Shown here piece by piece: positions 799-50,118 of a DNA stretch of 64,000 nt (the stretch's first letter is position 1; every line of letters begins with the position of its first letter). The stretch lies in the NCBI GenBank assembly GCA_965249275.1, contig CBDFLQ010000006.1, positions 128,001-192,000 on the forward strand, read 5' to 3'. The translations under genes and the position numbers were made by a program. The notes under the pieces are model-generated. The model was not told the DNA's origin and searched no databases. It was given only the letters and a program-made list of their open reading frames with translations. This DNA is from Dehalococcoidia bacterium (GTDB lineage Bacteria; Chloroflexota; Dehalococcoidia; Plut-88900).

Positions 799-828
799 TT
801 GACCTTATATGAACACTTGTGCTATATT
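799..828 (+). promoter_or_regulatory. Sigma70-like promoter with LexA-like box (element E1)
   Basis: TTGACC (799-804), GAAC-ACTT-GTGC (811-822), TATATT (823-828). Confidence 0.7.
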
Positions 829-1318
829 AGCCTCCAGGTCCCGACACCCCACGTCGGCCCTAATCAGGAAAAGGACCAAGGAGTTCCATGAGTCGCATGG
901 CCCACACATCGGCCCGTCGTTACCGAGCGGTATGGGACCGCCCGGCCACCGACACGCGCCTCCTCCCCAATCCCTATTCGCCCTGTCCCCATCTCAACAC
1001 CCACTACAAGCGCTGCCCAAAGGCCCAACGCCTGTGCCTTCGCAGCGATCAATCATCGTCCCGCCCCCTGCATGGAAGGTCCCCGGACAAATCAAGGCAC
1101 GCCCTGCTGCAGGGCAGCCGCCTCCGCATCAGCGCCCCCGTCGAGGGGCATACTTACGTCGCCGACGTAGTCCTTGCCGGCGAATCCCAACAGTCGGATG
1201 AGCGCCGACTCAAAACCAACGCACCATTTAAGGATTCCACCGTCGTCACAACCGGAGAACTTCCGACTACGAACGCCGGTCACTGGTCCACGCTCCTATC
1301 CCTTGGGATGGTCGAGCA

Positions 1319-1595
1319 CTTCTGGTGGACGGGACTGCCCCACAGCGAGAATTTCTCGCGTCTCGTCCACATCCCCTCAGAAGTTAGGGGCTATCGCACA
1401 GCCGTCGCCGATGTCAAACCTCCGTTGAGGCGGACACCGCGCATCGGTGCAATGGCTGGGCGCTTCTGGTGGTCGAGACTGCCCCACACCGAGATTCCCT
1501 CGCGTCTCCTCCACGTCCTCTCAGAAGCTCGGGGCTGTCGCAGAGTCGTCGCCGATGTGGAACATCCGCTGTGGCGGACAATAGGCATCGGTGCA
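1319..1595 (+). repeat. Diverged tandem duplication, period 144 bp
   Basis: CTTCTGGTGG at 1319 and 1463; GCATCGGTGCA at 1441 and 1585. Confidence 0.85.
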
Positions 1596-1728
1596 GGCGT
1601 CGCCGTCTTCTTGCGCAACCGTCCGGGACCTTCCATCCCCTCCCCCTCTGCCCCTCTAACAACCAAAACAGGTGTATACTCCCTCCATCCGGCATCCGGC
1701 CTTAGTCACCGACACGGGAGCAAGCGCC

Positions 1729-3057
1729 ATGACGAAGCTGAAGGTCGCTCACTACCTGAACCAGTTCTTCGCCGGCATCGGCGGCGAGGACAAGGCCAAC
1801 ACTCCACCGGGCACCGAACCCCGGCCCCTCGGCCCCGGCAACTCCCTCCACCAGACCCTGACCTCCTCTGGCGATGGAGCCGTCGTCGCAACCGTATTCT
1901 GCGGCGACACCTATTTCACCGAAAATGAAGAGGAAGCCCTCGACCGCATCGTCGAACTCGTCCGGGACTCCGGTGCCGACGTTCTCGTCGCCGGGCCCGC
2001 TTTCGGGTCGGGACGCTACGGCCTCGCCTGCGCCCAAGTCTGCCAAAAAGTTGCTTCTTCCCTCGGAATTCCCGTTGTAGCCGGAATGCACCCCGCCAGC
2101 CCCGGCGCCGAGCAGTACAAGGGCCAAGTCTACATCGCCTCCACCGCCGAGACCGCGGTCGGCATGCCAGCCGCCATCTCGGTCATGGCAAAACTCGCCT
2201 TGAAGCTCGGGCGCGGTGAGGAGCTCGGCCCCGCCGACGAGGACGGCTACATCCCAACCGGCCGGGTGAAGACCCAGGTCCACGAAAAGACCATGGCCCA
2301 GAGACTTGTCGACATGGCCCTCAAGAAGGTCAGAGGCGAGCCTTTCGAGACCGAGTGGCCCCTCCCCACCATGGAAAAGATAGCCCCGGCGCCCGCCATT
2401 GACTCCCTGGCCGGAGCCCGTATCGCCCTTGTAACCGAGGGCGGTGTCGTCCCCAGGGGCAACCCCGACAAGATTCCCAGCGGTTGGGCCCGCCACTGGG
2501 CCCGCTACGACATCGGCGACACTTCAGACCTCACCGCCGAGGAATGGCAGTCGGTCCACGGCGGCTTCGACACCACCACGCTGAACCGTGATCCGGACAG
2601 AGTAGTGCCCCTTGACGTGATGCGTGACCTTGAGGAGGAGAAGGCCATAGGCAAGGTCCATGAGTATATGTACTCGACCGTCGGGAACCTTGGCTACGTT
2701 GCCAACATGAAGCAGTTCGGCCAGGACATCGCCGCCGAGCTTCAGGCCGCCGGCGTCCAGGGGGTGATCCTCACCGGCACCTGAGGCACGGGTACGCGTA
2801 GCGGCGCTACGCTCGCCAAAGAGTTGGAACGGGCCGGACTGCCCACCGCCTTCATCACTGCAATGGTCCCCTTGGCTCAGAGCATCGGTGCAAACCGCAT
2901 CGTCCAGGGCAAGTCGGTAACAACGACTACAGGAGACCCCAGTCTCCCCCCCGACGAAGAAAAGGCTTTCCGCCGAAGACTCGTCGAGAGGGCTCTTAAG
3001 TCCCTCCAGTCTACTCCACAGGACCAGGAAGTCGTCTGGGGCGAGGACCGGGGCTAG
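1729..3057 (+). CDS. grdB: Glycine/betaine/sarcosine reductase family selenoprotein B-like (Sec at TGA 2782-2784)
   Basis: N-terminus KVAHYLNQFFAGIGGEDKA, AGPAFGSGRYGLAC and HGGFD motifs. The frame continues through TGA as ILTGT-U-GTGTRSGATLAKELERAG, joining ORFs 1672..2784 and 2824..3057. ATG at 1729 follows GGGAG. Confidence 0.85.
2785..2817 (+). promoter_or_regulatory. Putative bacterial SECIS element
   Basis: Hairpin GCGTAGC-GGC-GCTACGC (2796-2812) begins 11 nt after the in-frame TGA and has a G-containing apical loop. Confidence 0.65.
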
Positions 3058-4592
3058 ACCGCCACCCGCTCCAGGTCTTTCAGTATCGCCTTTGCTGCGT
3101 TGTGTCCCGGGGCCCCAGTGATCTCTCCGCCCGGGTGCGTCCCCGACCCACACATGTAGAACCGGGAGATGTTCGACCGGTACGGCATCCGCCCCGAGAA
3201 AATCTGTTTAGTCGTTATGTCTATGTGCCGGATGTTGCCGTCCGTGAGAAATTGCCTGATCTCGATGTCCTCCGGCGTCTGCAATGTACAGTCAACTATC
3301 GACTCCCGGAAGTTGGGCGCGTAGGTCGTCAGTATGTCTATAAGCTGCTCCCCGACCTTCGGCCCCTCCACGTCCCAGGAACCATCCTTAAGCTCCGCTG
3401 GCGCGTACAGCGTCCACGAAGAGAGCACGTGGTGGCCTGCCGGAGTCAACGACTTGTCGTAGATCGAGGGCATTTGCACATTCATTACCGGACAGCTTGA
3501 TGGATAGCCGTTCTTGGCATCGTCCCAGCTCTGCTGGAAGTAGTCCACTGAGGGACAGATGCGGAAGTAGGCGGTCAGCCGAGGGTCGTACCCTTCTCCC
3601 AGGTAACTGCTGAAGTCAGGAAGTTCCCTAAGCGCCACCAGCAGCTTGACACAGTTCGCCCGAGTACTAAGCCCGTCCACCTTTGTCTTCGTTGCCGCAT
3701 CTACGTCCGCCGGGTCCACCAGGTCCCGATAAGTGCGCTTCGGGTCGGCGTTGGACACGACCATGAAGCTCCTGATCTCTTCACCGTTCTCCAGCCTCAC
3801 CCCAACCGCCGTCCCGTCTTCGACAATTACTTTGTCGACTACAGTGTTCAACCTGATCTCGACCCCGAGGGACTCGGCGTACCGCGCCATTGCGAATGGC
3901 AGTTGGCTCATGCCTCCGCGCGGGATCCCGTAATTCTCCGGCTTGGTGAATGCATTCACCCTCAGGTAGGCAAGGCTTAGTATGCTGCCCGGTGCGCTCG
4001 GGTCACCGGCGTCCTGGGCATCGATGAAGTGCGCCTTCACCTGCGGATGCTCGAAGTGCCTGTCTACAAGGTCTCTCATGCTGACGGTGAGCATGGTCTC
4101 CCATACTTCCTCGTCGCTGGTGCCTCTTACGTCCTGGTACACCTCCGCAATCGTCGGAGGCTCCCGGAACCAGTACCTGTGCAGGATCGCTGAGGCCCGC
4201 TCCCAGAAGCTCGTCCATTCCGGGAACGCCCGGGCATCCCGCTCCGAGAATCGGGCCAGCTCCGCCGCGTTCCGGTGATTCTCCCGGTACGTCATGATGT
4301 AGTTGCCGTCCGGGAACGGATCGAACCGGAACGTCGTGAACGGTATTATGTCTAGCCCGTTGTCCCTCAGCTTCAGGTCGTCTATCACCCGGCCCTGCAT
4401 GATGTGCAGAATGTAGGCGCAGTAGGGGATGGTGAAGCCCGGGGCAAGCTCGTCACTGACCACGGCGCCGCCCACCATTTCAAGCCGTTCCAGCACCAGG
4501 ACTTTCAGTCCTTCCTGGGCCAGGTATCCCGCCGTGACGAGACCATTATGCCCCGCCCCGATGATGATGGCGTCGTATTCGTGTTGCTGCAT
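3054..4592 (-). CDS. Phytoene dehydrogenase-like FAD-dependent oxidoreductase
   Basis: IIIGAGHNGLVTAGYLA dinucleotide-binding motif, PRGGM, and C-terminal GSGTHPGGEITGAPGHNAA. Confidence 0.85.
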   Translation of the reverse strand: MQQHEYDAIIIGAGHNGLVTAGYLAQEGLKVLVLERLEMVGGAVVSDELAPGFTIPYCAYILHIMQGRVIDDLKLRDNGLDIIPFTTFRFDPFPDGNYIMTYRENHRNAAELARFSERDARAFPEWTSFWERASAILHRYWFREPPTIAEVYQDVRGTSDEEVWETMLTVSMRDLVDRHFEHPQVKAHFIDAQDAGDPSAPGSILSLAYLRVNAFTKPENYGIPRGGMSQLPFAMARYAESLGVEIRLNTVVDKVIVEDGTAVGVRLENGEEIRSFMVVSNADPKRTYRDLVDPADVDAATKTKVDGLSTRANCVKLLVALRELPDFSSYLGEGYDPRLTAYFRICPSVDYFQQSWDDAKNGYPSSCPVMNVQMPSIYDKSLTPAGHHVLSSWTLYAPAELKDGSWDVEGPKVGEQLIDILTTYAPNFRESIVDCTLQTPEDIEIRQFLTDGNIRHIDITTKQIFSGRMPYRSNISRFYMCGSGTHPGGEITGAPGHNAAKAILKDLERVAV

Positions 4593-4615
4593 TTAATGTG
4601 CTCCCGGACCCCGGA

Positions 4616-5707
4616 TTAGTCGTACATGATCACGCTTCGAGCTATGTGCGCGTCCCTCATGTCGTCGAAAGCCTCGTTGATGTCTTCCAGCTTGATCCTC
4701 TTGGAAATTATCTCGTCCAGCTTCAGCCGACCCTGTCGGTACAGCTCCATGTACTGTGGCATATCCACCCGGAAGTGATTGGAGCCCATGTTGCTTCCCT
4801 GGATTCGGCGCCCGTCCAGCATGGATGGACCATCTATCGTGATCTTCGTCCCCTGCGGGATCATGCCGATAACAGTCGCCGTGCCCCCCTTGTCTAGCAT
4901 GTCGTAGCACTGCTCCGCCGTCACGGCCTTCCCGATCGCCTCGAAGGCATAGTCGACTCCCAGGCCTCCCGTGAGCGACTTTACCTTTTCAACTACCCCG
5001 CCCTTAGACGCATCTATTACGTTAGTTGCCCCAACCCTCTGCGCAAATCCCAGCTTGTCTTCCACGGCGTCTATCGCTATAACTTTCGCCGCCCCGGCAA
5101 TGATCGCTCCATTGATCGCGCTCAGCCCCACCCCGCCACACCCAACAACCGCCACCGTGCTCCCCGGCCTCACCCTGGCTGTCCTCATCGCCGCCCCGAC
5201 TCCCGTGGTCACACCACAGCCAATCAACGCCTGTACTTCGATTGGCACGTCCTCTTCCACAACCACCGCCGCATTCTCATGGACTAGCATATATTCCGCA
5301 AAGGAGGACAGGTTCATCGCTTGGTGGATAACCTCGTCGCCCTTGTGCAGGCGTGGCGACTCGTTACGCCCCCTCTTGAGGCCTACTCCCCTGCAGTTCA
5401 CCATTTCACCCTGGATGCACTTGTCGCAGGTGCCACAGAACACGGAAAGGCAGGTTATGACCCTGTCTCCTGGCTGATGGTACGTCACCTGAGACCCGAC
5501 CGCTGCCACCGTCCCCGCAGCCTCGTGTCCCAGGATAGTCGGCAGAGGGCACTTGTACAGCCCGTCTATATAGTGCAGGTCGCTGTGGCAGACGCCGGAG
5601 GCGCCGGTCTTTATCAGGATCTCTCGGGGTCCGGGCTCTCCAACGTCAACCTCTTCGATCGTTACGGGCTCGAAGGGCGCTCTCATGACAGCTGCTTTCA
5701 TCTTCAT
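4616..5707 (-). CDS. Zn-dependent alcohol dehydrogenase (class III-like)
   Basis: GVCHSD, GHE, CxxCxxC...C structural Zn site, GCGGVG. Confidence 0.9.
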   Translation of the reverse strand: MKMKAAVMRAPFEPVTIEEVDVGEPGPREILIKTGASGVCHSDLHYIDGLYKCPLPTILGHEAAGTVAAVGSQVTYHQPGDRVITCLSVFCGTCDKCIQGEMVNCRGVGLKRGRNESPRLHKGDEVIHQAMNLSSFAEYMLVHENAAVVVEEDVPIEVQALIGCGVTTGVGAAMRTARVRPGSTVAVVGCGGVGLSAINGAIIAGAAKVIAIDAVEDKLGFAQRVGATNVIDASKGGVVEKVKSLTGGLGVDYAFEAIGKAVTAEQCYDMLDKGGTATVIGMIPQGTKITIDGPSMLDGRRIQGSNMGSNHFRVDMPQYMELYRQGRLKLDEIISKRIKLEDINEAFDDMRDAHIARSVIMYD

Positions 5708-5771
5708 TTCAGGGGTCCTCCTATGGATTGGGTCAATCGGCCTTGGTTATTCGTGTCGTCGTATGGTCAGG

Positions 5772-6854: not shown

Positions 6855-7116
6855 GGGTCACCTCCCTATCGTGGGTCTCAATGCGGTGTAAGTTTAGTTA
6901 GCGGCACACAATGCGGGTCACGGGTGAGTTTATTATCCCCCGTCGCATGGCGTCAACACGTCTATCCTGCGTCAGAAAATACGTCCACGCCCGTGGTCCA
7001 CCCGCTGTCTTCCTCAATTCACCGAGGCTTATTGATGTAAGATGTACGAACGGAGCTGGTTACACAAGTAAGCACATTACTATTCCATATGCCAGTTTCC
7101 CACTAGGAGCTTGCCC

Positions 7117-7659: not shown

Positions 7660-7716
7660 ATGGCTTAAGACTAACCGGAGCGCGGCGCACTCCACTCACT
7701 TCCTCCCTTCAAACAC

Positions 7717-13066: not shown

Positions 13067-13670
13067 CTGTATTATCCGTCTCGACTTAGTATTTGGGTAT
13101 GCGAGGCTGGTCTATTACATCAAAAACCGGGGCCTGCCGGTAAAGCGGGGGCCCCGGTGAGCCACCGAGTTGAATGTCTAGGGGAATTATAATCTGTTTT
13201 GTTATAAAAATCCATTGAACCCCCTCAGTCAGTCTCACCGCCGAGGCGTGAATCCACCCCCAGTGGCACACCCGCTCACCTGAATGCCTCCGTCATTCCG
13301 GCCGGCGAGAGCCGGAATCCATCCCCGGTGGCGGGGCCGTGTCCGGTCCCCTCTCCCGTCGGAGGGAGAGGGGTAGGGTGAGGGTGATTCTCCCACCCCT
13401 CCCCCCGAGCCCCGGAATCCATCTCCAGTGGCAGGGCCGCTCACCCTGAGCGCCGTCGAAGGGTCGAGCGGGGGGGGGAGGCCCCGCACTGCCAAACCGT
13501 CGCACCCGTCCAACACCCCCCTCCCCCCTTGGCAACGATATATCAGTAAAACAGGGTGGGTGGGCGGGTACCAATTAAACGGGGTGGCCGGGAGGCGTCC
13601 TACCCCCTCTCCCTCCGATGGGAGAGGGGTGGGGTGAGGGTGACCTTTCCCCAAAAGTGACACGAACCCC

Positions 13671-13700
13671 TTGACCCAATCGAAACACATGTACTATATT
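13671..13700 (+). promoter_or_regulatory. Sigma70-like promoter with degenerate LexA-like box (element E2)
   Basis: TTGACC (13671-13676), AAAC-ACAT-GTAC (13683-13694), TATATT (13695-13700). Confidence 0.65.
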
Positions 13701-14618
13701 CGCCCCAGGCTCCGACCTTGTACGTCGGCCCTAATAAGGAAAGGACTAAAGGAGTCCCATGAGTCGCACCAGCCTAATCAGGCCCCGTCACACCCGAGCG
13801 GTATGGAACCGCCCGGCGCCCGACACGCGCCTCCTCCCGAGTCCCTCTTTCAACACCGTGTCCCTCGGATTCCCTCTACCAAGCGATGGAAGGTCCTTCG
13901 ACTGTCGGCGGCATTCTCCCTCTAAGGGCCTTTGCCGATATATCGCCCCCTCATCCGGGCGTTTGCTCCTCGCCGACTTTACCCTCGCCGAGGATATATC
14001 CGCGTCTTTTGACGCGTTTGCCAGGGCCTTAGTGCCCTTATCCGGCTCCACCACCCGCTGTAACTGGAGATTCTCCTTCGGTCCACCGCGGCATCGAGTC
14101 GTTATGCCGTCCCACGCAGCGGTCGAGCGCTGCCGCCGGACGGATAATCCCCACCCAGAGACGCCCTCGACTTCGGTATGTCTCCTCCGACATGCGTGGG
14201 GATATCGCAGGACAGCCGTCGACGCCACCGGCGTCGGCGCAGGTGTCGTCGTCTTCCTGCTTACCAGTCCCGGACCTTCCATCGCCTCCCCTTCCTTTGC
14301 CCCATTCCCAGGCTCCGTGAGGAATCTCGGACTTGCCCACTCACCTATCTCTGCCCTCCCAGCCACTCAGCCGAAATCCAGGTGGGGAGGCCCCTCACCC
14401 CGCCACCCACGAAAGGAACCCGCCTATCTGCTCACATCCCCCACTCTCCCAACCGAGCAGCCAAAGAAAACGTCCCTTTTCCAAAACAATCAAAATTCGT
14501 GTCTCTAACCGAAATTCAATCAACCCCCCCATCGGGACAACCCCCACAAAAGGAGACCGCCTGCTAGCCCATACCCCCCACTCACCCCCCACAATCGAAG
14601 ATCCGCCTCAGGAGGACT
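13671..14618 (+). other. Dispersed structured intergenic element E2
   Basis: 5' part homologous to E1. Perfect 14-bp long-range stem 13883-13896 / 14272-14285. 32-nt tail identical to that of E4. Confidence 0.55.
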
Positions 14619-14793
14619 AAATATCGCACCTTCCGGGGCCTGGCATCTGGCCCTCACTGAACGGGTCAAAGGGACAGCGTACTGGCGAGAAGGCACCCTT
14701 TACCCTCATCAACCTTCCCCTCCCGGTTGACGCCCACGCACCCGCTTATTACAGTTGTCTCCCGAGACGACCATCCCGAAGGGAGTACCCGAC

Positions 14794-16191
14794 TTGACCT
14801 CTGAACAACCCACCCGAATAGAAAAAGACTCCATGGGCCCAATGGAGGTCCCCGCCGACGCCTACTACGGCGCTTCGACCATGCGGGCTGTCCTCAATTT
14901 TCCCATCAGTGACCTGAGGTTCCCCCGTTCCTTCATCCGAGCCCTCGGCCTTATAAAGCTCACCGCCGCCGAGGTTAACTCCAGCCTCGGATTGCTGGAA
15001 CCCGACAAGAAAGACGCCATCGTCCAGGCCGCCCAGGAAGTCGTCGACGGCAAACTTGACGACCATTTCGTCCTCGATGTCTTCCAGACTGGCTCCGGCA
15101 CCTCCACGAACATGAACGCCAACGAGGTCATCGCCAACCGAGCCTCCGAGATCATGGGCGGCGATATCGGCTCCCGTATCGTCCATCCCAACGACCACGT
15201 AAACAAGGGCCAGTCTTCCAACGACGTCATCCCCACAACAATGCACCTCGCTGCCCTTACCGAAATCGAGACCAATCTCATCCCCGCCCTCCAGCGCACA
15301 CAGGCCGCCCTTGAATCCAAGTCCCGAGAGTTCTGGGACATCATCAAGACTGGTCGCACTCACCTGCAGGACGCGACCCCCGTGCGGCTCGGGCAGGAGT
15401 TTCTTGGTTACGCAGGCCAGATCCAGCTCGGCATCCGACGCCTCTCCCACGCCCGAGAAGAGCTTTCACAGGTCGCCCTCGGCGGCACCGCTGTCGGCAC
15501 GGGGGTCAACACCCACCCCGAGTTCTCAGCAAGAGTCACCGCCCGCGTCTCCGAGCTCGGCGGTGTGGAAATTCGAGAAACCGAGAACCACTTCCAGGCC
15601 CAGAACACCCTCGACGCCGTCGTCGAGTCCAGCGCCGTCCTACGCACCATCGCCATCAGCCTTACCAAGATAGCCAACGACATCCGGTGGATGGGCTCAG
15701 GCCCGAGGGCTGGCATCGGAGAGCTTGCCCTGCCGGAAGTTCAGCCCGGAAGCTCCATCATGCCCGGCAAGGTCAACCCGGTCATTCCGGAATCCGTCAT
15801 CCAGGTCTGCGCCCAGGTCAAAGGCAACGATACGGCCATCGCCGCTGCGGCCCAGGACAGCTACTTCGAGATCAACCTGATGATGCCCGTCGCCGCCTAC
15901 AATCTCCTGCAGTCAATCTCCATACTCGCCGCCGCCGCGGACAACTTCACCGGCCAGTGCATCGAGGGCCTCCAGGCCACCGACCGGGGCCCCCAAACCG
16001 TGGAGCGAGGCCTTATGATCGGCACCTCCCTGGCCCCCGTCATCGGCTACGACCTCGCCGCCCAAATCGCCAAGGAAGCCGCGAAGAGTGACCGCACCAT
16101 CCGTGAGGTCGCCCGAGAGCTCACCAACCTCTCCGAGGAAGACCTCTCCCGCATCCTAGACCCCAAAACCATGGTCGAACCCCGCGCCTAG
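14794..16191 (+). CDS. fumC: Class II fumarate hydratase
   Basis: RIEKDSMG, QTGSGTSTNMN, GSSIMPGKVNP. Start placed at TTG after GGGAG (ORF track start is 14755). Confidence 0.93.
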   Translation: MTSEQPTRIEKDSMGPMEVPADAYYGASTMRAVLNFPISDLRFPRSFIRALGLIKLTAAEVNSSLGLLEPDKKDAIVQAAQEVVDGKLDDHFVLDVFQTGSGTSTNMNANEVIANRASEIMGGDIGSRIVHPNDHVNKGQSSNDVIPTTMHLAALTEIETNLIPALQRTQAALESKSREFWDIIKTGRTHLQDATPVRLGQEFLGYAGQIQLGIRRLSHAREELSQVALGGTAVGTGVNTHPEFSARVTARVSELGGVEIRETENHFQAQNTLDAVVESSAVLRTIAISLTKIANDIRWMGSGPRAGIGELALPEVQPGSSIMPGKVNPVIPESVIQVCAQVKGNDTAIAAAAQDSYFEINLMMPVAAYNLLQSISILAAAADNFTGQCIEGLQATDRGPQTVERGLMIGTSLAPVIGYDLAAQIAKEAAKSDRTIREVARELTNLSEEDLSRILDPKTMVEPRA

Positions 16192-17495: not shown

Positions 17496-19808
17496 TCAAG
17501 GCCTAGCTTGATTGAATTTTGAGAGCCATGCAAGATCACTCTCTAATGCGGGGCGACGCCAATATATGCGTCTCACTTCCGATACAAATATCGGATCCGT
17601 ACTTGATACCGCGTGCCAGATTCTTAATGTTTCTGTGAGTGCTTGAATGTCCTCCAATTCATCATATGCGAGAGCAAGTCCCCGGTAGATTCGCGAACGT
17701 GGAACTGAATATTCTTCTGGAGGAGCCTTTAGTGCCCGCCGGAATAAATCTACCGCAGCGTATCGAGCGCTCTTCGCCTGTGAGAATTGGTTGAGATTGT
17801 CCAAGGTCTTGGCTTCTCGCGACCTTAGGTAGCCCGCGCGGTGGCAACGTCCATCTGATTCCTCACACCTTTCGAGTGCCAGTTGCGAAACTTTGATCGC
17901 GTTCCTCCACAGCCCTAGAAGATTCTCCTCAGTATCCCTCCAAACCGCTTCCTCCGCAGAACGGATTTCCAATTCCGTCCAGTGGAAATACATCTCTGGT
18001 TTTCTGGGCCCGAACTTATGGGCGTTCTTGAAAGCCTCCTGAGCCTCTGACCGGAATTGTTGAGGGTTCCTAGCATATATCCATCCTAGCATTCCATACA
18101 GGTCAGGATCGTCTCTTAGCTCTCCAGTCATTGCTAACACTAATTTGTTGGTGGCAGCCTCTATTCCAGAGTGATCGTGTTCCTCTTTAGCATCCCTAAT
18201 CGCCTTCCCTATCGCCAGACGCTTTGCTTCCGTTGTTCGCTCTCCTGTTAGGCCCTTATATGCTGACACCGCCGATAGTAACTTCGGGTGCTTCGCGAAT
18301 GTGCTTCGAACTAAACGCCGCGTATTGGAATTGATGCTGTAAGCAGGCTCGGAAGTCTCTTTATTATCCACGCGGTGTATCAGTCCACTACTTAATAAGG
18401 TAGTGACACCGCTTTCCACATCATCGTCTGCCAGCCCCCCCACCTGGCTAATCTCAACAACGCGCAGAGGCCGATTGCCCACTGCAATTGAGATAAGCGT
18501 ATCTTCAGTCACACCTCCAAGGCGTTCCAACTGCCGTCGCAACGCATAAACGCGGGCCCCATCTCCTTTGCGGTGCTCCCATTCTTCAATTGCCTTCTTA
18601 ACCCCTACCAGTGCCGCATAACGGATGAGGTCATCGACGAACAGGGGATAGCCTTGTGTGACAGCTCGGATTCTAACAATGTTCTTTAGACATACATTTT
18701 CGTCGACGCCATATTCACCTGCGCGCCCAGCAATGAAGTTTTGGAGAGTCTCGTCGTCAAACGGAGGTACCTCCATGTAACGTATTCCTGGAATCTGTTG
18801 CCGCGAGGTAAACAAAACCTTGCTTGCGGTAGGGCGCAACTCGAACAGCAACATTTCCGCAGTATCCTGATCGTCAATCACTGTATCTAGATCGTCAACG
18901 ATCAGCAGACAGCGTGTATTCCTCAGTTCGGAGAGCATTTCATCTTTCGACACGTCGTAGCGATCACTTCCGTATAGTGCATTCACAATGCGATTACAGA
19001 ATGTAGGCACATCCTCAAAATCAGGTATCCGCTCTTTAGTAGAACGATCTACGTATTCAATCTTCTTTGCAGTGAGCCACACGATCGCGTCAATGTAATC
19101 AGACGCGATGTCTCGTATTTCCTGAGCGAACTTATGGGCCAGAGCGCTCTTCCCAACGCCACCATATCCCCACACCATGCGCTGTTTAGAGTCACTGGTA
19201 AACCAGTCCAACAACTCCCTCAATTGCTCTGATCTTCCTAGGAATTCGTCATAGATTTCGTCATGCGGGGGCAATTGAACCTCAATGGGTCTACCGCCCC
19301 AAGGATCAACTCCCGAAAGTAACGAGTCCAGAATGTCGTGAAACTCTTTCCCTATCGGGGAATTGATTGCATCCAGTAGTATTTGTGCGTTTTGGATAAA
19401 CCGGATTAAATCCACGCGGCGAATGATGTGTTCTTTGCGGCGATGCGCAAGGTTATGTCTGAGTTCTGTAATCTCTCCCAGATATACTTTCACTCGCTCT
19501 TGCTGACCCAATAAGCAGGAGAAAATCTTCCAATTACCAATGACAATGTTAGAGAGATGCTCAATGCCGAACAGTTCTTCATCAGATTTTCCCATGTCTA
19601 CGACCCGCATAGGGTTGTTCAACATCTTCTCTACGCGTAGGAACTCTTCCTCCTTAAAGTGTCTTCGCACTCCCTCCTTTAGCCAGTCATCTCCAATGGC
19701 CATCTGTAAGTTCTTTACTATCGGCTCATGGAATCCATCTAAGAAATCCAGTAGTTTCTCGTTGGCAAAGTCATTTATGTTCAAGATTGTTAGCCCCCTA
19801 TACCACAA
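17496..19808 (-). CDS. Swt1-like HEPN + STAND (NB-ARC-like) NTPase + wHTH + TPR-like protein; candidate defence protein
   Basis: N-terminal ELRHNLAH (RxxxxH), FLGRSEQL, Walker A GYGGVGKS, Walker B LLIVDD, LFTSR, GYPLF, helical C-terminus. Visibly lower GC than flanks. True start may be TTG at 19784. Confidence 0.75.
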   Translation of the reverse strand: MWYRGLTILNINDFANEKLLDFLDGFHEPIVKNLQMAIGDDWLKEGVRRHFKEEEFLRVEKMLNNPMRVVDMGKSDEELFGIEHLSNIVIGNWKIFSCLLGQQERVKVYLGEITELRHNLAHRRKEHIIRRVDLIRFIQNAQILLDAINSPIGKEFHDILDSLLSGVDPWGGRPIEVQLPPHDEIYDEFLGRSEQLRELLDWFTSDSKQRMVWGYGGVGKSALAHKFAQEIRDIASDYIDAIVWLTAKKIEYVDRSTKERIPDFEDVPTFCNRIVNALYGSDRYDVSKDEMLSELRNTRCLLIVDDLDTVIDDQDTAEMLLFELRPTASKVLFTSRQQIPGIRYMEVPPFDDETLQNFIAGRAGEYGVDENVCLKNIVRIRAVTQGYPLFVDDLIRYAALVGVKKAIEEWEHRKGDGARVYALRRQLERLGGVTEDTLISIAVGNRPLRVVEISQVGGLADDDVESGVTTLLSSGLIHRVDNKETSEPAYSINSNTRRLVRSTFAKHPKLLSAVSAYKGLTGERTTEAKRLAIGKAIRDAKEEHDHSGIEAATNKLVLAMTGELRDDPDLYGMLGWIYARNPQQFRSEAQEAFKNAHKFGPRKPEMYFHWTELEIRSAEEAVWRDTEENLLGLWRNAIKVSQLALERCEESDGRCHRAGYLRSREAKTLDNLNQFSQAKSARYAAVDLFRRALKAPPEEYSVPRSRIYRGLALAYDELEDIQALTETLRIWHAVSSTDPIFVSEVRRIYWRRPALESDLAWLSKFNQARP

Positions 19809-19957
19809 ATTAACTTACCCTGTGATTCTAAGAACAAGATATCATCTGTATGCACAGCATGAGTAGCCTCCACCCCCAATTGACCCCCACCCCCTCCGTC
19901 ATTCCAGCCGCCGAGAGCCGAAATCCATCCCATCTCCCTTCTACCCAGTACTGAACT

Positions 19958-19997
19958 AGAGGCAGAGGTTGGCGCAGAAGCGCCAACCTCTGCCTCT
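19958..19997. repeat. Perfect 18-bp hairpin
   Basis: AGAGGCAGAGGTTGGCGC-AGAA-GCGCCAACCTCTGCCTCT. Confidence 0.85.
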
Positions 19998-20110
19998 GTT
20001 CTTATCTCTCCCTCTCCCTTAATGGCCCTAAGGGAGAGGGGGATAAAGGGGGTGAGGGTTCCCCGGTGGGGTTGGGGCGTTGTCCCCCGCCTAGGTGTGC
20101 AATCAACCCC

Positions 20111-20140
20111 TTGACCTTACCTGAACATCCGTGCTACTAT
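20111..20140 (+). promoter_or_regulatory. Sigma70-like promoter with LexA-like box (element E3)
   Basis: TTGACC (20111-20116), GAAC-ATCC-GTGC (20123-20134), TACTAT (20135-20140). Confidence 0.7.
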
Positions 20141-20810
20141 CCCCACCGTTCGAACACCACCCTAACTATCTCAAGGAGGAACCAAAAACCCAGGGAAGCC
20201 CACCCGACCCACCCGAGGACTCAACGTCCAAGCCCATCCCAATGGCCCTCACACGGGGCCCGCGGCTCAAGCGAAAGCGGAACGTCCGCCTATGGAGAAA
20301 CGCCATCTCCTCACTCCATCGGGTCCCGTGCCCCTTCCCTACCCCCAGGCGATGGAAAGACGCCCTGGTTCGCTATCGTTCCATGTGAGGCTCCTAACGG
20401 AGATGCCGCTCCTTCAAGCGGAATAGCGGTCGGATAGGCCCGGCGCCGAGGTCCTCTCGGTACACCGTCCGCTTAATGAAGCCGGGAGCCGGTGGTCTAC
20501 GCGCTCCGGGTCGCACCGGCAAACTTGAACACACTACGCCTGCAGAGGCCCGGCATCGGACGCTGGACGGGCCTCCTGGCCGCCCTATAGCGGTGCAGCC
20601 AACCCCCGGAGTCGGGCTCGGACCTGCTGGCCCTGAAGGTCCCTGCCCATGTCCAGTGTATACAGGGCCAAAGGCCGCAGCAGCGGCAAAAGCGGGCCGG
20701 CGCCCTTGCCCCAGGGCGTCGGAGCGCCCGAAGCACATGAACAGGGGCAGCGTCCAGCAAGCGTCTTCCATCGCCAACCTCCCAGACAGAACAATCAAAA
20801 CCCTACCCCC
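20111..20810 (+). other. Dispersed structured intergenic element E3
   Basis: About 200 nt of the 5' part is highly similar to E4. Long-range stem 20348-20363 / 20761-20775. Confidence 0.55.
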
Positions 20811-20938
20811 CACAACTGAATAGAAACCCGGCGTGTCACTAATCTACTGGACGAGTTCCCCCAATTGACCCCCCACCCCCGACATGCTACCATCCCACCT
20901 AGTGACCCCTATCCCGTGGTAGGGGTCGCATTCGGATA

Positions 20939-31401: not shown

Positions 31402-31533
31402 CCCCCTGCCCTTGTCCTCCTGTCAATCTGAGGCTCCTTCTCTGTAATTCCGAGGCTCCGCGAGGAATCTGGGACTTGCCTAGCTTCGTCTCTCCTCTGT
31501 ATGTCGCGCCCCATCCACCCTTTCTCGCCCCCA

Positions 31534-31581
31534 TTGACACCCTCTGTCTACTTTGTTATTATTTCCTTAGAACGCCCGTTC
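31534..31581 (+). promoter_or_regulatory. lexA promoter and SOS box
   Basis: TTGACA (31534-31539), 17 nt, TATTAT (31557-31562), then perfect GAAC-GCCC-GTTC (31570-31581) upstream of the lexA ATG. Confidence 0.85.
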
Positions 31582-31596
31582 CCAACAGAGGTGCGC

Positions 31597-32229
31597 ATGA
31601 AAGCTTTGTCAAAAAAACGTAAGCAAGTCCTTGACGCTATCACCGGCTTTATGGACCGGCACAAGTATCCTCCCAGCGTCCGGGACGTCGTCCAGATTTG
31701 CAGTATGAGTTCTACCTCAGTGGCCGACTACCACCTTAAGGCCCTCGAGAGGGAGGGCTACATCCGTAGGGAGTCGGGCGTGTCCCGGGGAATAGAAGTC
31801 ATCGGCTACGACGGTCGGGACGCCGACATCTTCAGGGCCCCACTCCTGGGTTATATCGCCGCCGGCGAGCCTCTTCCAGTTCCCACCTCAGAACCCTGGG
31901 CTTCCCTTGAAACCCTCGAAATTCCCGAGGACATGGTTGGCGGCAGGGAGAATGTCTACGCCCTCAAAGTCAAGGGCACTTCAATGATCGACGCCCTCAT
32001 CGACGACGGCGACATCGTCCTCCTCCAGCACGTCAACACCGCCGACGACGGTGACATGGTCGCCGCATGGCTTGAGGCCGAGGAGGAAGTCACCCTTAAG
32101 CGCCTCTACCGAGAGCCGGATAGGATCAGGCTTCAGCCCGCCAACTCCCAGATGGCCCCCATTTACGTCGATCCCTCTAACCTCTCCGTCAAGGGCAAGG
32201 TTATAGGCGTCATACGCAAACTGGCCTAA
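31597..32229 (+). CDS. lexA: SOS repressor LexA
   Basis: YPPSVRDV wHTH, IAAGEP cleavage site, GTSM (Ser), TLKR (Lys). Confidence 0.95.
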   Translation: MKALSKKRKQVLDAITGFMDRHKYPPSVRDVVQICSMSSTSVADYHLKALEREGYIRRESGVSRGIEVIGYDGRDADIFRAPLLGYIAAGEPLPVPTSEPWASLETLEIPEDMVGGRENVYALKVKGTSMIDALIDDGDIVLLQHVNTADDGDMVAAWLEAEEEVTLKRLYREPDRIRLQPANSQMAPIYVDPSNLSVKGKVIGVIRKLA

Positions 32230-43579: not shown

Positions 43580-43679
43580 AGGTTAGAGATGTCCGAGCCG
43601 CAAATGCCGGTCAAGTATAATGGCCTCGGCAAACGAGCGACAACGCGGACTCCGAGACCTCAGAAAGGGGCAGCCAGAC

Positions 43680-44777: not shown

Positions 44778-44802
44778 ATACAACATCCTCCGGAGGACAC
44801 CT

Positions 44803-45972: not shown

Positions 45973-45983
45973 GTTAAACCTTC

Positions 45984-46967
45984 TTGCTGAATAAAGCCGG
46001 GATTACCGTCACGTCCGTAGTACTCGCCGTCCTGCTGATGTGTATCGCCTGTGGCCCGACACCCCCCACCCTCCCCCTCCTCGACGCCATAGACCAGGAG
46101 GATACGGATGTCGTCCGGGCCCACATGGAGATCGGCACAGACCCCGACAAGACATTCATCCCTCCGGGCATCCCATTCACCGGGGCCTCGGCCCTCCACG
46201 TTGCAGTCCTTAAGGACAACCGAGAAATAGTCCAACTCCTCCTCGATAACGGCGCAGACATCGATATAAGGGCGCTGGACGATTCCGAGGGCTCACCTCT
46301 CGAATGGGCGGCCTACTTCGGGCTCAATGACATGGCCGTCTTCCTCGTAGAGTCTGGGGCAGACATCAACGCCAGAAACGCTTACGGCACCACGCCCCTT
46401 GACGCCGCTTATGCCAACAACCCCTTCATCCCCGAAGAGGATCGCAACCGGTTCAACGCAAACCGCGACCTCATAAGTGCATATCTGATTGAGGAGGGCG
46501 CCGAGTCCACCACCCCGGTCCTCACCCTCCTGGACGCCATCGATCAGGGCAACGCAGACGCCATACTGGCTCACATGGAGTCCGGCACGAACCCCGACAA
46601 TATCTTCATCCCGCCGGGACTTCCCTTCGCCGGCGCCTCAGCCCTCCACGTCGCAGTCCTTAAGGATAACTAGGAGATGGTCCAACTCCTCCTCGACAAC
46701 GGTGCCGACATCGAAATAAGGGCATTGGACGAGTTCAAAGGCTCCCCTCTGGAATGGGCTGCCTTCTTCGGCCTCAAGAACATGGCCGTATTCCTGGTAG
46801 AGTCCGGCGCCGGCATCAACTCCAAGAACGCCTACGGCACAACCCCCCTCGACGCCACCTCCTCCGACAACCCCTTTATCCCCGAAGAGGACCGCAAGCA
46901 GTTCGACGAAAATCGCTTCTTCCTAAGGCAATACCTCTCCGAAAAAGGCGCCCAGTCCGGCCGGTAA
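45984..46967 (+). pseudogene. Ankyrin-repeat lipoprotein with two 150-aa modules, interrupted by in-frame TAG (46671-46673)
   Basis: IACG lipobox; SALHVAV..IVQLLLDNGADI, SPLEWAA, TTPLD. 450-bp internal duplication. TAG aligns with CGA in the first module. Confidence 0.7.
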
Positions 46968-46977
46968 ACCCCACCCC

Positions 46978-47889
46978 CTACCGCCCACCAAACAGCGGAA
47001 TAACCTCCCGCGCAATCCTCTCCGGCATCTCAGCCGTCACTTCCTCCGGCCCTGACGGACTGAATATGAAGTGCTCCACCCCCGCATCCCGGTACTCTCC
47101 CATCCGAGCCACAATCTCCTCCGGCGTCCCCAAAAGCGCGTACCTTCGCACGATGCTGTCGAATGACTGGCCGTAGTCACCACCCAACGCCTGGCTCGAC
47201 ATCCGGGCTGCTTCGTCATAGCTGTCGTCTATACATATGGGGACCCACACCGTCGGCTCTATCTCCTTCGGGTCCCGGCCTGCGCCCTCTGCGATCTCTA
47301 TAATCTGCTCCCACCCCTCTTTGAACAGCTCTGGCGAATACATATACGGAATCCACCCATCGCCGTACAGTGCCGTCCTCCGCACCGACTTCCTCCGCCC
47401 CCCGACATAAATCGGCGGATGGGGTTTCTGCACCGGTTGCGGTTTCAGCCCCACGTCTTCCAGTTGATAAAACCGCCCGGAAAACGTCACTGACTCCTCA
47501 GTCCACAGCCGTTTCATTAGCCGCATGATCTCGTTGGCCCGCGGCCCTCGCTCATTCACCGGCACACCCATCGCCTCGAACTCTTTCGTGTATTCCCCCC
47601 CAATCCCGATCCCGAACTTCACCCTCCCCCCCGATAGGTGGTCCAGCGTGGTCACCGCCTTGCACATCAGTATCGGGTGCTTCAGAGGGATCAGCACTAT
47701 TGCCGTGCCCAACTCGATGCGTTCCGTCACCGCCGCCGCGGCCGCCATCTGCATCAGGCTGTCCTGGATCGGGTGCCGCCACACGACGTGCTCCCCCGCC
47801 CACACCGAGTCGAAGCCAAGGTCCTCGGCCTTGCGCGCCTGCCCCGCCGGGTCTCCCCCACTCTCCTTAAGCGTAATCCCGAATTTCAT
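46978..47889 (-). CDS. LLM-class flavin-dependent oxidoreductase
   Basis: AEDLGFDSVWAGEH, TLDHLSGGR, PVQKPHPPIYVGG, YGDGW. Confidence 0.9.
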   Translation of the reverse strand: MKFGITLKESGGDPAGQARKAEDLGFDSVWAGEHVVWRHPIQDSLMQMAAAAAVTERIELGTAIVLIPLKHPILMCKAVTTLDHLSGGRVKFGIGIGGEYTKEFEAMGVPVNERGPRANEIMRLMKRLWTEESVTFSGRFYQLEDVGLKPQPVQKPHPPIYVGGRRKSVRRTALYGDGWIPYMYSPELFKEGWEQIIEIAEGAGRDPKEIEPTVWVPICIDDSYDEAARMSSQALGGDYGQSFDSIVRRYALLGTPEEIVARMGEYRDAGVEHFIFSPSGPEEVTAEMPERIAREVIPLFGGR

Positions 47890-47905
47890 CGTCGCCGCCC
47901 GCCCC

Positions 47906-49270
47906 CTACCCCAGCTCCGAGCTCACGTCGCTCAGAATCTCGTTCAGGTTGCTGACTATGTAGTCCACCTCATCCCTTGTGACACACAGTGGAGGACTCA
48001 GGAAAATCAGGTTGCCCCGCTGCCGAGTCAGGATGCTGTGCTTCAGGAAGCCCTTGGTCAACTTCTCACCTAGCCCCGAGTCTTCGGCAAACTTCTCCTT
48101 CGTGTTCCGGTCCTTCACTATCTCCACCGCCGCCAGAAGCCCGAGACCCCCCCGCACGTCCCCGACTATCGGGTGCTCGTACAAAGTCTGAAGCTGCTCG
48201 TACATGTAAGTCCCCATATCCGCGGCGTTCTGCACCAGCCCCTCGCCTTCCAGGATGTCCAGGTTCGCTAACGACGCCGCACATGACACCGGGTGACCGC
48301 CGAACGTCAGAAGGTGCTTGAACGTCTTGTCCTCACCCCCGATGAACGTGTCGGCTACCGACTTCCGCGCCACCGCCGCCCCTATGGGCAAGTAGCCGCT
48401 CGAAAGGCCCTTGGCCATCGTCATTATGTCCGGCTGCAGGTCCCAGTGCTCCGACGCGAACATTTTCCCCGTCCGTCCAAACCCCGTGATCACCTCGTCG
48501 ACGATGAGAAGCACGCCGTATTTGTCGCATATCTCCCTGATCGTTGGCCAGTATTCGGGGTGCGGCACCATCATCGTAGCCGCCGAAATCGGCTCCGCGA
48601 TAATCGCCGCTACCGTTTCCGGCCCCTCGTGCAGTATCGCTCTCTCGAAGTCCCTGGCACACTCCACGTTACACTCACCGGCCATACTGCAGAACTGGCA
48701 CCGGTAGTTGTTCGGCTGGGAAACGTGAATGTTCCCCGGGATCAGAGGCCCGAATCCGCTTGTGCCGGGGTATCCTCCCAGGCTCATCAGCGCGAACGTA
48801 GCCCCATGGTAGGAGTTCTGGCGGCTGATGATCTTGTACCGACCCTTGTCGCCCCTGACCTGGTGGTACGCCTTCGCCATCTTCAGTGCTGACTCCACCG
48901 CCTCCGATCCACCGCTCACCATAAACACACGAGACTCCTTGTCCCGTGACAAGCTAGCCAGCCTTGTGGCCAGCTTAAGCGCCGGAACGTTGGTAGTGTT
49001 CTCCGGCGAGTATGTGATGTGTTGCATCTGCTCATACACCGCGTCGGCTATCTCCGTCCGGCCGTATCCAATATTCTTCAGCCACATCCCCGACAGCACG
49101 TCGATGTATTTCCTGCCCTCGGTGTCCTCCACCCAGCACCCCTTCCCGTCTGCCATCACGTGGAGTCCGTCCTCCTTGTCGAAGTCGGCTACCTGCTGAG
49201 AGTGAGGCCAGAAGTGATCGCGGGCCATTTTTTTCAGCTCGTCTGCGCTGGGGGATTGGATAGACGCCAT
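47906..49270 (-). CDS. Class III aminotransferase (omega-amino acid type)
   Basis: SGGSEAVE, SYHG, DEVITGFGRTG, MAKGLSSGYLP. Confidence 0.92.
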   Translation of the reverse strand: MASIQSPSADELKKMARDHFWPHSQQVADFDKEDGLHVMADGKGCWVEDTEGRKYIDVLSGMWLKNIGYGRTEIADAVYEQMQHITYSPENTTNVPALKLATRLASLSRDKESRVFMVSGGSEAVESALKMAKAYHQVRGDKGRYKIISRQNSYHGATFALMSLGGYPGTSGFGPLIPGNIHVSQPNNYRCQFCSMAGECNVECARDFERAILHEGPETVAAIIAEPISAATMMVPHPEYWPTIREICDKYGVLLIVDEVITGFGRTGKMFASEHWDLQPDIMTMAKGLSSGYLPIGAAVARKSVADTFIGGEDKTFKHLLTFGGHPVSCAASLANLDILEGEGLVQNAADMGTYMYEQLQTLYEHPIVGDVRGGLGLLAAVEIVKDRNTKEKFAEDSGLGEKLTKGFLKHSILTRQRGNLIFLSPPLCVTRDEVDYIVSNLNEILSDVSSELG

Positions 49271-49425
49271 AACACGACTCCTTTGGAGAGCATTCCTGAG
49301 ACTTGTGGGTAACGGGCACAGCCCCAACTAATCGGGGCCTCTGGCCTCGATTCTATACCCGCCCGCGAGGCTCGGTCAAACCTGTGTACTCGTTCGGTAG
49401 ACTAGCGACGCGCCGGGTTTTATTC

Positions 49426-50118
49426 AGTCCTCCTGAGGCGGATCTTCGATTGTGGGGTTTTGGGTGTTGGTTGTTTTGTTGGGGGGGGGGGTGGCGATGG
49501 AAGACGCCCATTTGGCAGAGCTGCTTGTTCGTGGACTTGCAGCCATCATGCCCTGATGCTAGATGGTATACACGGACAATTCTCGGGCCAGACGTCCGGC
49601 AGAGGCTCCTTATGGGGGCTGTATGCACGTGGGGGCATGTCGGGGCCAGGTATCCAGCTGTGCGAGGCCCCACAGCCTAACTAATAGTGTCCAAGTTCGC
49701 CGGAAAAGGACAGGAGCGAATATCCTCCGGGCACCCCCGCGCGGTAGCGCCAATCTCCAGCAATGCGGCCCGACGTTCGAGACGGTTCTCCATGGGGGTT
49801 ATGCGGTCCGCGGAGTGTATGCTCGGGTCACCCTTGATGCAATCTCCCGTACAGGGAGCAGAGTGGGAGCGTGAAGGCCAGGGCGTCTTTCCATCGCCTG
49901 ATGATCAGGGAAGGGGGCACGGGACCCGGTGGGGATGAGGAGATGGCGCCGGTCGCTTGTGCCGCGGGCCCCGTGTATGGGCCGTTGGGATGGGCTGGGG
50001 CGTTGAGTCCTCGGGTGGGTCGGGTGGGCTTCCCTAGTTTTTGGTTCCTCCTTAAGGTGGTTGGGTTAGGTGGTCCAGACCTGACTACAATATAGAACAT
50101 AAGTACTTAACATGTCAA
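49426..50118 (-). other. Dispersed structured intergenic element E4
   Basis: Reverse complement is homologous to E3. Long-range stem 49881-49898 / 49493-49509. Confidence 0.55.
50089..50118 (-). promoter_or_regulatory. Sigma70-like promoter with LexA-like box (element E4)
   Basis: On the - strand: TTGACA, 6 nt, GTAC-TTAT-GTTC, TATATT (box reads GAAC-ATAA-GTAC on +, 50095-50106). Confidence 0.75.

Follow-up and report, generated by a model that had tools for sequence, protein, structure and literature searches.

What are the four intergenic regions, E1 to E4, that share one layout within a 64,000-nucleotide (nt) stretch of a Dehalococcoidia genome? The stretch (hereafter the window) comprises positions 128001-192000 of contig C6 of G000, a metagenome-assembled genome of 2.9 Mb in 7 contigs, with 59% G+C and a completeness of 87%. 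The original prediction had presented the regions either as a DNA-damage-inducible, multicopy, large structured RNA or as a non-autonomous element resembling a MITE (a miniature inverted-repeat transposable element). On the basis of the comparisons described below we consider it reasonably probable that they belong to a genus-wide family of promoter-bearing and promoter-targeting, non-autonomous mobile cassettes of ~0.75-1 kb, which resemble MITEs or mobile insertion cassettes (MICs). The shared architecture that had been proposed was confirmed by alignment: all four regions have a promoter with a box, a leader, a long-range stem containing ATGGAA/TTCCAT, and a tail that is first C-rich and then CA-rich. 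The limits originally assigned to them were too narrow and are now placed at ~780-1665 (E1), ~13652-14715 (E2) and ~20093-20859 (E3) on the + strand, and at 49385-50152 (E4) on the - strand.

Copy number, probable mobility and target of the cassettes

The analysis centers on this single incomplete genome and was extended to a comparison of nine species of one uncultured Dehalococcoidia genus; the gene calls across the genome are our own and crude. Searching G000 by nhmmer with the leaders of E1, E2, E3 and E4 yielded 55, 54, 15 and 16 matches, respectively, which merged into 68 loci. One of these (A47) is the terL-like gene that is discussed below, which leaves 67 elements. The expectation that the four copies in the window imply many copies per genome was thus borne out. 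According to their leader, 54 elements are of type B (like E3 and E4) and 13 of type A (like E1 and E2). BLASTN with E3 recovered dozens of matches in each of the eight other species of the genus (8/8) and no match in any of three further genera of the family or 19 further families of the class.

The cores that are enclosed by the stem had been called poorly conserved. They do differ among copies, but they form at least eight defined classes (22, 13, 12, 6, 5, 4, 2 and 2 copies, plus two singletons). Leader types and core classes occur in shuffled combinations, and 'a constant scaffold with variable cargo' is a fair description of the family. The orientation of the core with respect to the leader is constant, with 1836 same-strand and 0 opposite-strand high-scoring segment pairs, and on these numbers the reading of the core as an invertible segment (inverton) was rejected. 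The idea that cores exist as free-standing small MITEs was rejected as well, as the arm motifs found outside the elements either mirrored element arms on the opposite strand or were short matches that arose by chance within genes. The left limit of the elements is sharp, with CCCAAAAGTGACAC in most copies and TGATCCCGTTCACATAGAGGGGTGACAT in the gamma subtype, to which E4 belongs.

The elements are mobile or at least dynamic, as orthologous sites differ between species. Upstream of ribF (the site of E3) an element is present in 8/9 species, with best-matching cores that differ, and G003 has none. The site upstream of the aminotransferase gene (E4) is filled in G000 and G002 only, by elements that are 91% identical to each other, and G005 carries a 9-nt remnant of the right end there. 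Upstream of the fumarase gene, G000 and G002 share E2 at 97.7% identity and in G003 the site is occupied by another type-A element; the other species among the nine compared showed no detectable element here, and the similarity of G005 and G001 to G000 resumes only ~40 nt before the gene. Finally, the site upstream of grdB (E1) measures 96 nt in G001, which lacks the element, versus 1350 nt in G000.

Gamma-type copies end in ...GTGTCACTAAYCTACCGAACGAGTACA, and their ends form imperfect terminal inverted repeats of ~30 bp (TG...CA), the left end being identical to the reverse complement of the right end at 21/30 positions with two 1-nt gaps (TG..C.CGTTC...GTGACA.CACC). At up to 6 mismatches, G000 contains 17 left ends and 24 right ends. 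The spans between left and right ends in this genome are 739-1199 bp, and thus exceed the size of MITEs, which are usually shorter than ~600 bp. For 22 distinct pairs of a left and a right end, 16 of them in G000 and 6 in other genomes, the flanks were inspected for a 5-bp direct repeat, which was perfect in 10 pairs and matched at 4/5 positions in another 6, versus 0/22 at 4/5 or better in an offset control. One further perfect 5-bp duplication (CACCG) was found. No rve-type DDE transposase matched inside any element, and the internal open reading frames (ORFs) of the elements in the window gave no Pfam match and include no transposase. Retro-mobility was rejected, as RVT_1 has no match in G000 (87% complete). 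Mu-transpos_C had no match, but had none in the control genomes either, and is hence not informative on Mu-like transposition. The description as a MITE-like non-autonomous element therefore applies to the subfamily that includes E4, with its inverted repeats, 5-bp duplications and lack of an internal transposase or reverse transcriptase; most of the other copies have no outer left repeat.

In the gamma-type copies the right end is separated by exactly 5 bp from the -35 hexamer of a resident sigma-70 promoter, which lies downstream and reads in the same direction. TTG follows after 5 bp at 15/24 right ends (versus 1.2% of random positions) and TAnnnT at a spacing of 16-18 nt at 20/24; both features together were found at 12/24 right ends, versus 0.055% of 20,000 random positions. 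These promoters are resident and not parts of the element, since their spacers vary among copies and the promoter at the E4 site is also present in more distant species that lack the element. An asymmetric target of this kind entails that most loci (53/68, using the crude gene calls) are co-oriented with the downstream gene. The genes that follow the elements in the window have no function in common (GrdB, fumarase/aspartase, RibF and class III aminotransferase). We infer that the precise placement reflects target recognition, or partly selection.

A DDE (rve) transposase would move the cassettes in trans. G000 contains 22 rve-domain matches that represent three types of insertion sequence (IS). 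One type, which encodes an rve protein of 329 amino acids (aa), ends in TGTAAGTGTTAGGTAATTCGTTGACAGA and creates a 5-bp duplication (ATTCC); we take it to be a member of the IS481 family, considering its single rve ORF, TGT ends and short duplication. Its end resembles the right end of the elements at 18/30 ungapped positions (p ~5e-5), and the left end of the elements at 7/32 positions only. Related ends and the same 5-bp duplication make this IS481-like element of the same genomes the best candidate mobiliser. The cassettes further share with the IS481 family a strong target choice. Unlike the 329-aa IS they encode no rve protein, and they target promoters, whereas the IS targets ATTCC within the repeat GTCATTCCGAGGC. 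The choice of target by the cassettes would depend on reading the promoter itself, or RNA polymerase bound to it. Two long left-right pairs (in G002 and G005) were considered as an autonomous partner and rejected, as they represent nested or decayed IS insertions with ORFs that lack a Pfam family. As a separate observation, the 329-aa IS (TGTAAG...CTACA) is inserted in the repeat GTCATTCCGAGGCYCCGCGAGGAATC, with an ATTCC duplication each time, at G000:C7:510553, C7:521651, C6:525070 and 8 more positions. Several of its copies adjoin cassettes.

The terL-like gene and the open frame of type A

Part of the cores could be related to a gene that resembles terL, which encodes the large subunit of terminase. 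A six-frame search with the frame of E1 across the order recovered, besides the type-A copies, one to a few frames of ~490-575 aa per species of the genus and one frame of 428-467 aa in each of three other genera. The parent in G000 is a 462-aa terL-like ORF that follows a 137-aa ORF (G000:C7:110680-112618), and a second copy of this operon is located at G000:C5 ~1-2109. The parent protein matches three PHROG families of terminase large subunits (E 2.6e-6, 3.8e-6 and 2.5e-4) and has more than 4000 database relatives of ~460 aa, mostly unnamed proteins of Dehalococcoidia or Chloroflexi. Among 120 listed relatives 3 carry Terminase_6C, and the Pfam cut-off for Terminase_6C was exceeded by 3/6 relatives tested. 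The protein of G000 itself has no Pfam match, and a sequence search of the PDB returned nothing. The terS/terL-like operon is conserved at ~55% identity across many Dehalococcoidia. A prophage or gene transfer agent cluster at the terL-like gene was rejected, as its neighbors are housekeeping genes (PEPCK, UbiA, YidC and Jag). Also near this locus, at G000:C7:117344-119064, lie three tandem paralogues that combine a zinc ribbon with a CD225 (interferon-induced transmembrane protein-like) domain.

In blastx comparisons 12/13 type-A and 8/54 type-B elements match residues ~194-370 of the terL-like protein in a single frame, and judged by this similarity the cores of these elements (20/67 in all) are fragments of the conserved terL-like gene. 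A profile of the type-A frames matches all copies of class III (12/12) and class V (5/5), part of class VI (2/4) and one of the two singletons. Classes I, II, IV, VII and VIII, with 45 copies together, gave no match to it, so that E3 (class I) and E4 (class IV) are without terL similarity. The arms of the stem map to the parent codons for ...GKGRF... and ...GPSI..., where the parent could pair over only ~9 bp including two G-U pairs, which implies that the long stem was built up within the elements. A derivation of the type-A N-terminus from terS was rejected, because the alignment past the -10 was not convincing.

The elements had been described as lacking a transposase, a reverse transcriptase or a convincing shared protein. 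The first two absences stand for the interior of the elements, but the third needs amendment, as an ORF is maintained in the E1/E2-type copies. All 13 type-A copies have kept the start AAGGAG-N-ATG AGT CGC, with a frame that is open over 216-400 codons. Within 230 codons, 12/13 copies show 0 stops, versus ~4.8 in shuffles and 1-7 in the other two frames; copy A30 has 2, 15 and 4 stops in the three frames. The E1/E2-type elements could accordingly be viewed as genes for truncated TerL-like proteins, possibly decoy or interfering subunits that act against the terS/terL-like machinery or against phage terminases. The conserved Shine-Dalgarno sequence and start codons and the open frame are in line with this view, and so is the G+C content at codon positions 1, 2 and 3 (0.63, 0.58 and 0.72), which is gene-like (0.74 at the third position of genes). 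Moreover, 465 database ORFs match the type-A frames (E <= 1e-3), and the genus-wide matches lie in open frames of ~100-630 aa, with an internal stop in only 4 of ~150 listed. Database ORFs are, however, biased towards open frames by gene calling, and no names or Pfam families were found among the 120 listed database ORFs that match.

The pattern of variation argues against such protein genes. The ratio of nonsynonymous to synonymous polymorphism (pN/pS), taken over 78 pairs, shows a median of 0.85 and thus almost neutral evolution, and the diversity at codon positions 1, 2 and 3 is equal (0.197, 0.186 and 0.212). The coding score is 0.03-0.115 per codon in 12/13 copies and -0.013 in A27 (E2), and thus remains under the 5th percentile of real genes (0.154, with a mean of 0.331). 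Modeling of the E1 frame by AlphaFold resulted in a mean predicted local distance difference test score (pLDDT) of 48.7 and a predicted template modeling score (pTM) of 0.19. The type-A frames match no Pfam, NCBIfam or PHROG family; they contain only parent residues ~194-370, and lack the terminase ATPase domain as well as the final portion of the nuclease domain. The type-B copies have no consistently open frame. We consider it unlikely that type A represents protein genes of this sort, and we read it as translated or recently coding fragments that would be kept open for a reason other than protein sequence.

Promoter, predicted transcript and competing explanations

The cassette promoter consists of a conserved block, GTGACA-N-CCCCTTGAC, followed by a spacer of 17-18 nt with a 12-nt box and by a TATATT-like -10. 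A consensus scan found sigma-70 consensus matches at 11/12 positions for the promoter of E4 and 9/12 for that of E3. The box occupies +13 to +24 from the T of the -35 and has the consensus GAAC-N4-GTAC in a matrix of 64 promoters. It had been labeled LexA-like, and an operator-like box is indeed present in 64/64 scored promoters, but a perfect match to the operator type of the genome's own lexA (GAAC-N4-GTTC, the Gram-positive type) in 0/64, with 1 mismatch in 26/64 and 2 in 38/64. The single lexA of G000 lies in the window (31501-32229) and has a perfect AGAACGCCCGTTCC just after its -10 (TATTAT; operator at ~31570-31583). A box similar to that of the cassettes, GAACACATATCC, is found in the spacer of the recA promoter. 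The palindromic box in the spacer may be an operator that LexA or another repressor could bind; judged by these motifs LexA control is possible, and a different repressor equally possible. Just after the predicted start there is a palindrome or hairpin, one per subtype: GTTCGAAC, GGTCTAGACC, GACTGGCCAGTC or CCGAC-N7-GTCGG. Matches to the cassette promoter were found at 5 positions outside the 68 loci, namely upstream of the two terS/terL-like operon copies and at three further loci, versus 61 inside.

From this promoter a C-rich RNA of ~650-900 nt would be transcribed, composed of a leader with invariant blocks, a closing stem of 17-25 bp around a core of 300-560 nt, and a tail that is rich in C and poor in G. 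The long closing stem is genuine, with covariation between classes. It is present in 49/68 loci by a strict motif test, with a mean arm duplex energy of -36.6 kcal/mol. When the invariant ATGGAA/TTCCAT was excluded, the inner arms paired more stably in cognate (-16.2 kcal/mol) than in non-cognate combinations (-12.8 kcal/mol; Mann-Whitney p = 7e-10). The leader has a length of ~200 nt, that of E1 being like that of E2 and that of E3 like that of E4. In type B (60 copies from 7 genomes) it includes invariant blocks, e.g. GAGGACTCAACG and AGCCCATCC, together with one hairpin that varies and covaries, and hairpin modules that are inserted in some copies. Of the predicted 'large structured RNA' the closing stem and the small hairpins are supported, but the folding of the rest is weak (see below). 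The absence of a known RNA family was borne out: no Rfam family reached its gathering threshold in the whole window, and the 4227 models gave only chance-level matches at E <= 10 in E1 and E3. A scan of the window for tRNA and tmRNA found nothing.

The element strand is C-rich, with 43% C and 21% G in the leader and a mean of 44% C, 14% G and 30% A in the 70-nt tails (n=54). No intrinsic terminator was found on the element strand of E3 and E4. Transcription might end by Rho at the C-rich tail, or might continue into the host gene. Rho is encoded in 5/5 closed genomes of the genus, and we attribute the fact that its RNA-binding domain was not found in G000 to the incompleteness of this genome. 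Contigs from four RNA libraries (labeled sponge metagenome) match parts of E1, E2 and E3, and include matches of 89 nt with 0 differences at 20358-20446 and of 200 nt with 3 differences at 1082-1281. Cover of the window by the four RNA runs is close to nil between 16.2 and 20.1 kb, with some cover in the adjoining E3; as missing cover is no proof, this contrast was not used as evidence. As a net effect of the proposed mechanism, host genes would come to lie behind a second, regulated promoter and a long structured leader supplied by a selfish element.

Several points weigh against this interpretation. With respect to mobility, 6/22 left-right pairs match at 3 bases of the duplication or fewer, the gamma left end is present in only 5/9 species, and the majority of the elements, namely the alpha, beta and type-A copies with E1-E3 among them, have no outer left repeat or clear duplication. 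An autonomous copy with the same ends was not found among the left-right pairs of the nine genomes. In addition, the counts of gamma left ends do not track the 329-aa IS, as is clear from G005 with 14 left ends and no 329-aa rve ORF listed. Selection after insertion could contribute to the adjacency to promoters. As for the RNA, RNAalifold of the type-B leader gave 17 pairs of which only 3 show a compensatory change, and folding of whole elements barely beats shuffles (z = -2.16 for E3 and -0.51 for E4), a thermodynamic test that failed to single out the elements. The RNA evidence consists of assembled contigs, which show no starts, ends or strand and may include DNA carry-over. Finally, the invariant leader blocks and the open type-A frame suggest some function beyond selfish spread.

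A rival account is that of a domesticated cis-regulatory module, in which the cassette promoter and leader would constitute an added, regulated 5' unit of the host gene, with the closing stem as a site of processing or insulation and the CA-rich tail as a new 5' untranslated region. This account fits the co-orientation of most loci with the next gene, the resident promoter that abuts the right end, the lack of an intrinsic terminator in E3 and E4 and the recurrence of an element upstream of ribF. On the other hand, the asymmetric target by itself accounts for the orientation bias, and at 15/68 loci the element points towards the 3' end of the next gene. The genes downstream in the window share no function, the intact resident promoter leaves the gene with no need of the cassette, and the C-rich, G-poor tail would favor termination by Rho before the gene is reached. 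We regard this account as quite improbable.

The proposal that the cassettes encode trans-acting, damage-induced, structured non-coding RNAs in the service of the host, with the RNA as the product and mobility as incidental, could draw on the invariant leader blocks, the covarying stem, the strictly maintained orientation of the core, the RNA-library contigs that cover cores, and the operator-like box beside the -10 of every scored promoter with its counterpart in recA. Yet it meets with the absence of an Rfam family, weak fold z-scores, little covariation in the leader, core classes that are unrelated and in several cases plainly decayed gene fragments, the lack of any copy with a perfect LexA-type box, and a distribution over one genus only with presence varying between sister species, which together make it decidedly unlikely. 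Very doubtful, lastly, is the idea that the cassettes and the stand-alone terS/terL-like operon are one system, in which ~70 dispersed cassettes, each located 5 bp upstream of a host promoter, would serve a terminase-like ATPase-nuclease as entry or cutting sites or via RNA or truncated TerL-like modulators, and in which the shared promoter and operator would probably imply one regulator for both. If true, it would mean that a bacterial transposable element targets sigma-70 promoters and that a domesticated packaging enzyme has many chromosomal sites.

The elements of the window and their relation to known systems

Returning to the non-autonomous, promoter-targeting cassettes that we favor, the individual elements of the window can be described as follows. 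E1 (780-1665, + strand) is a type-A element upstream of a GrdB-family gene (Pfam) at 1672-2784, and its right limit was set by the orthologous, element-free site in G001. The promoter (799-828) consists of the -35 TTGACC (799-804), the box GAACACTTGTGC (811-822) and the -10 TATATT (823-828). The open frame of 346 codons (888-1928; start AAGGAG..ATG AGT CGC) traverses the entire element and enters the next gene in a different frame. The segment 996-1412, which derives from the terL-like gene, corresponds to residues 198-344 of the 462-aa terL-like protein, with 61.9% identity in blastx (E 7e-51), and is 87% identical over 319 nt to the gene on G000:C7 in blastn. An internal tandem duplication of 2 x 144 nt, or 48 codons each, spans 1308-1595 (self-match 81% identity). 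The closing stem is formed by a 5' arm at 1066-1087, with ATGGAA at 1072-1077, and a 3' arm at 1621-1640, with TTCCAT at 1631-1636. The GrdB-family gene itself contains an in-frame TGA in 2/9 species (G006 and G008) and none in G000, a pattern that may represent a species difference between selenocysteine and cysteine.

E2 (13652-14715, + strand), of type A with a class V core and additional repeat modules in the tail, precedes a fumarase/aspartase-family gene at 14755-16191. Its promoter (13671-13700) has the -35 TTGACC at 13671-13676, the box AAACACATGTAC at 13683-13694 and the -10 TATATT at 13695-13700. The open frame has 249 codons (13759-14508), of which those at ~13843-14292 resemble residues 217-367 of the terL-like protein (blastx 34% over 151 aa, E 3e-16). 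E3 (20093-20859, + strand) is of type B; its leader is of the alpha kind and its core belongs to class I. Neither an open frame nor, by blastx and the type-A profile, any detectable terL similarity was found in it. Its promoter (20111-20140) comprises the -35 TTGACC, the box GAACATCCGTGC (20123-20134) and the -10 TACTAT, and the arms of its closing stem are at 20346-20368 (5') and 20754-20776 (3'). A right-end module at 20833-20859 resembles the right inverted repeat with 4 mismatches, and is followed by 5 bp (CCCAA) and then by the resident ribF promoter (20865-20893).

On the - strand, E4 (49385-50152) is a complete gamma-type element of 768 bp with a class IV core, which extends from TGAACCCGTTCAC... 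to ...CGAACGAGTACA. It is flanked by the two copies of its target duplication, CAGGT, at 50153-50157 (left) and 49380-49384 (right), and the right copy abuts the resident promoter TTGACC-N18-TAGAAT (49379-49350) of the class III aminotransferase gene. The promoter of E4 itself is TTGACA-N18-TATATT (50089-50118) with the box GTACTTATGTTC at 50106-50095. The arms of the closing stem are located at 49878-49900 (5') and 49493-49509 (3'). Beyond the 3' arm come the C-rich/CA-rich tail at 49492-49412 and, at 49411-49385, the right inverted repeat.

Other repeats accompany the elements. A hairpin, CCCTCTCCC..GGGAGAGGG followed by GGGTGAGGGTGA, constitutes a separate short repeat family that occurs in the window at 724-770, 13596-13650 and 20005-20065; dozens of copies are present in G000, often directly upstream of cassettes. 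All 8 copies of an IS with a 401-aa rve protein in this genome are inserted in this hairpin repeat. The hairpin modules (G)GAACATCCGCCTCTGGCGGA and GTCCGCCTCAGGAGGAC appear as one to three insertions in cassette tails (in the window at 14500-14620) and sometimes in leaders, and those in type-A copies preserve the reading frame. Upstream of E3, at 19957-19998, a perfect hairpin of 19 bp is followed by a T-rich run, with the gene to its left on the opposite strand; this module was found again at a dozen other loci. The region adjoining E3 also encodes, at 17496-19808 on the - strand, a 770-aa STAND-type NTPase with weak matches to Swt1-like HEPN, AAA_16 and NB-ARC, possibly a defense gene.

At the level of listings and abstracts, no paper was found that treats this cassette family, terminase-like genes in Dehalococcoidia or IS insertion at a specific distance from promoters. 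Several known systems nevertheless share individual traits with the cassettes. The Correia elements of Neisseria are bacterial MITEs that carry promoters and form RNA hairpins. Like the cassettes, MITEs of this type are non-autonomous, have terminal inverted repeats and a target duplication, occur in many intergenic copies that are often directly upstream of genes, and combine promoter activity with long-hairpin transcripts. The cassettes are, however, five to eight times longer (~770-1000 bp), their duplication is 5 bp of variable sequence instead of a fixed dinucleotide, and they sit at a fixed 5 bp upstream of a -35 hexamer. They further differ in having a modular leader and core, cores from a host gene, and a full inward-reading promoter that would transcribe the whole element. 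MICs are passenger cassettes flanked by inverted repeats that are moved in trans by an IS transposase. They resemble the cassettes in a size of ~1 kb, in inverted repeats related to those of a resident IS and in having a passenger and no transposase inside, but the passenger of the cassettes is a promoter together with a gene fragment that is non-coding or hardly constrained, instead of an intact gene, and the copy number is far higher.

Outside the bacterial transposable elements, the closest parallels concern single properties. Pack-MULEs are plant DNA transposons that capture gene fragments; in both cases a non-autonomous inverted-repeat element amplifies a transcribed fragment of a host gene that can stay open without normal protein constraint, whereas the host of the cassettes is bacterial and the source is a single (terL-like) gene. 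The yeast retroelement Ty3 integrates at a fixed distance from promoters, and like the cassettes it inserts a fixed short distance from a core promoter element and leaves the promoter intact. The cassettes differ in being bacterial DNA elements with inverted repeats, and no reverse transcriptase was found in G000 (87% complete). With large non-coding RNAs of Rfam such as OLE, GOLLD, ROOL and HEARO they share a length of hundreds of nt, an own promoter, a long-range closing stem and, in the case of HEARO, multiple copies. They differ in that no Rfam model matched beyond the chance-level matches of E1 and E3, and in showing little thermodynamic or covariation support beyond the closing stem.

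For the genomes of this genus the cassettes have practical consequences. They occupy ~50-60 kb per genome and will mislead gene callers, as 465 'proteins' in the databases already stem from type-A frames, and they will confound the assembly and binning of these uncultured genomes. With regard to biology, the family presents the capture and amplification of a gene fragment in a bacterium, with an ORF that stays open without normal protein-level constraint, and it connects the cassettes with a conserved terminase-like operon of the Dehalococcoidia. The fixed insertion 5 bp upstream of the -35 would make promoters the targets of a bacterial transposable element, and such promoter targeting would offer a direct route to study how mobile DNA rewires transcription without the destruction of genes.

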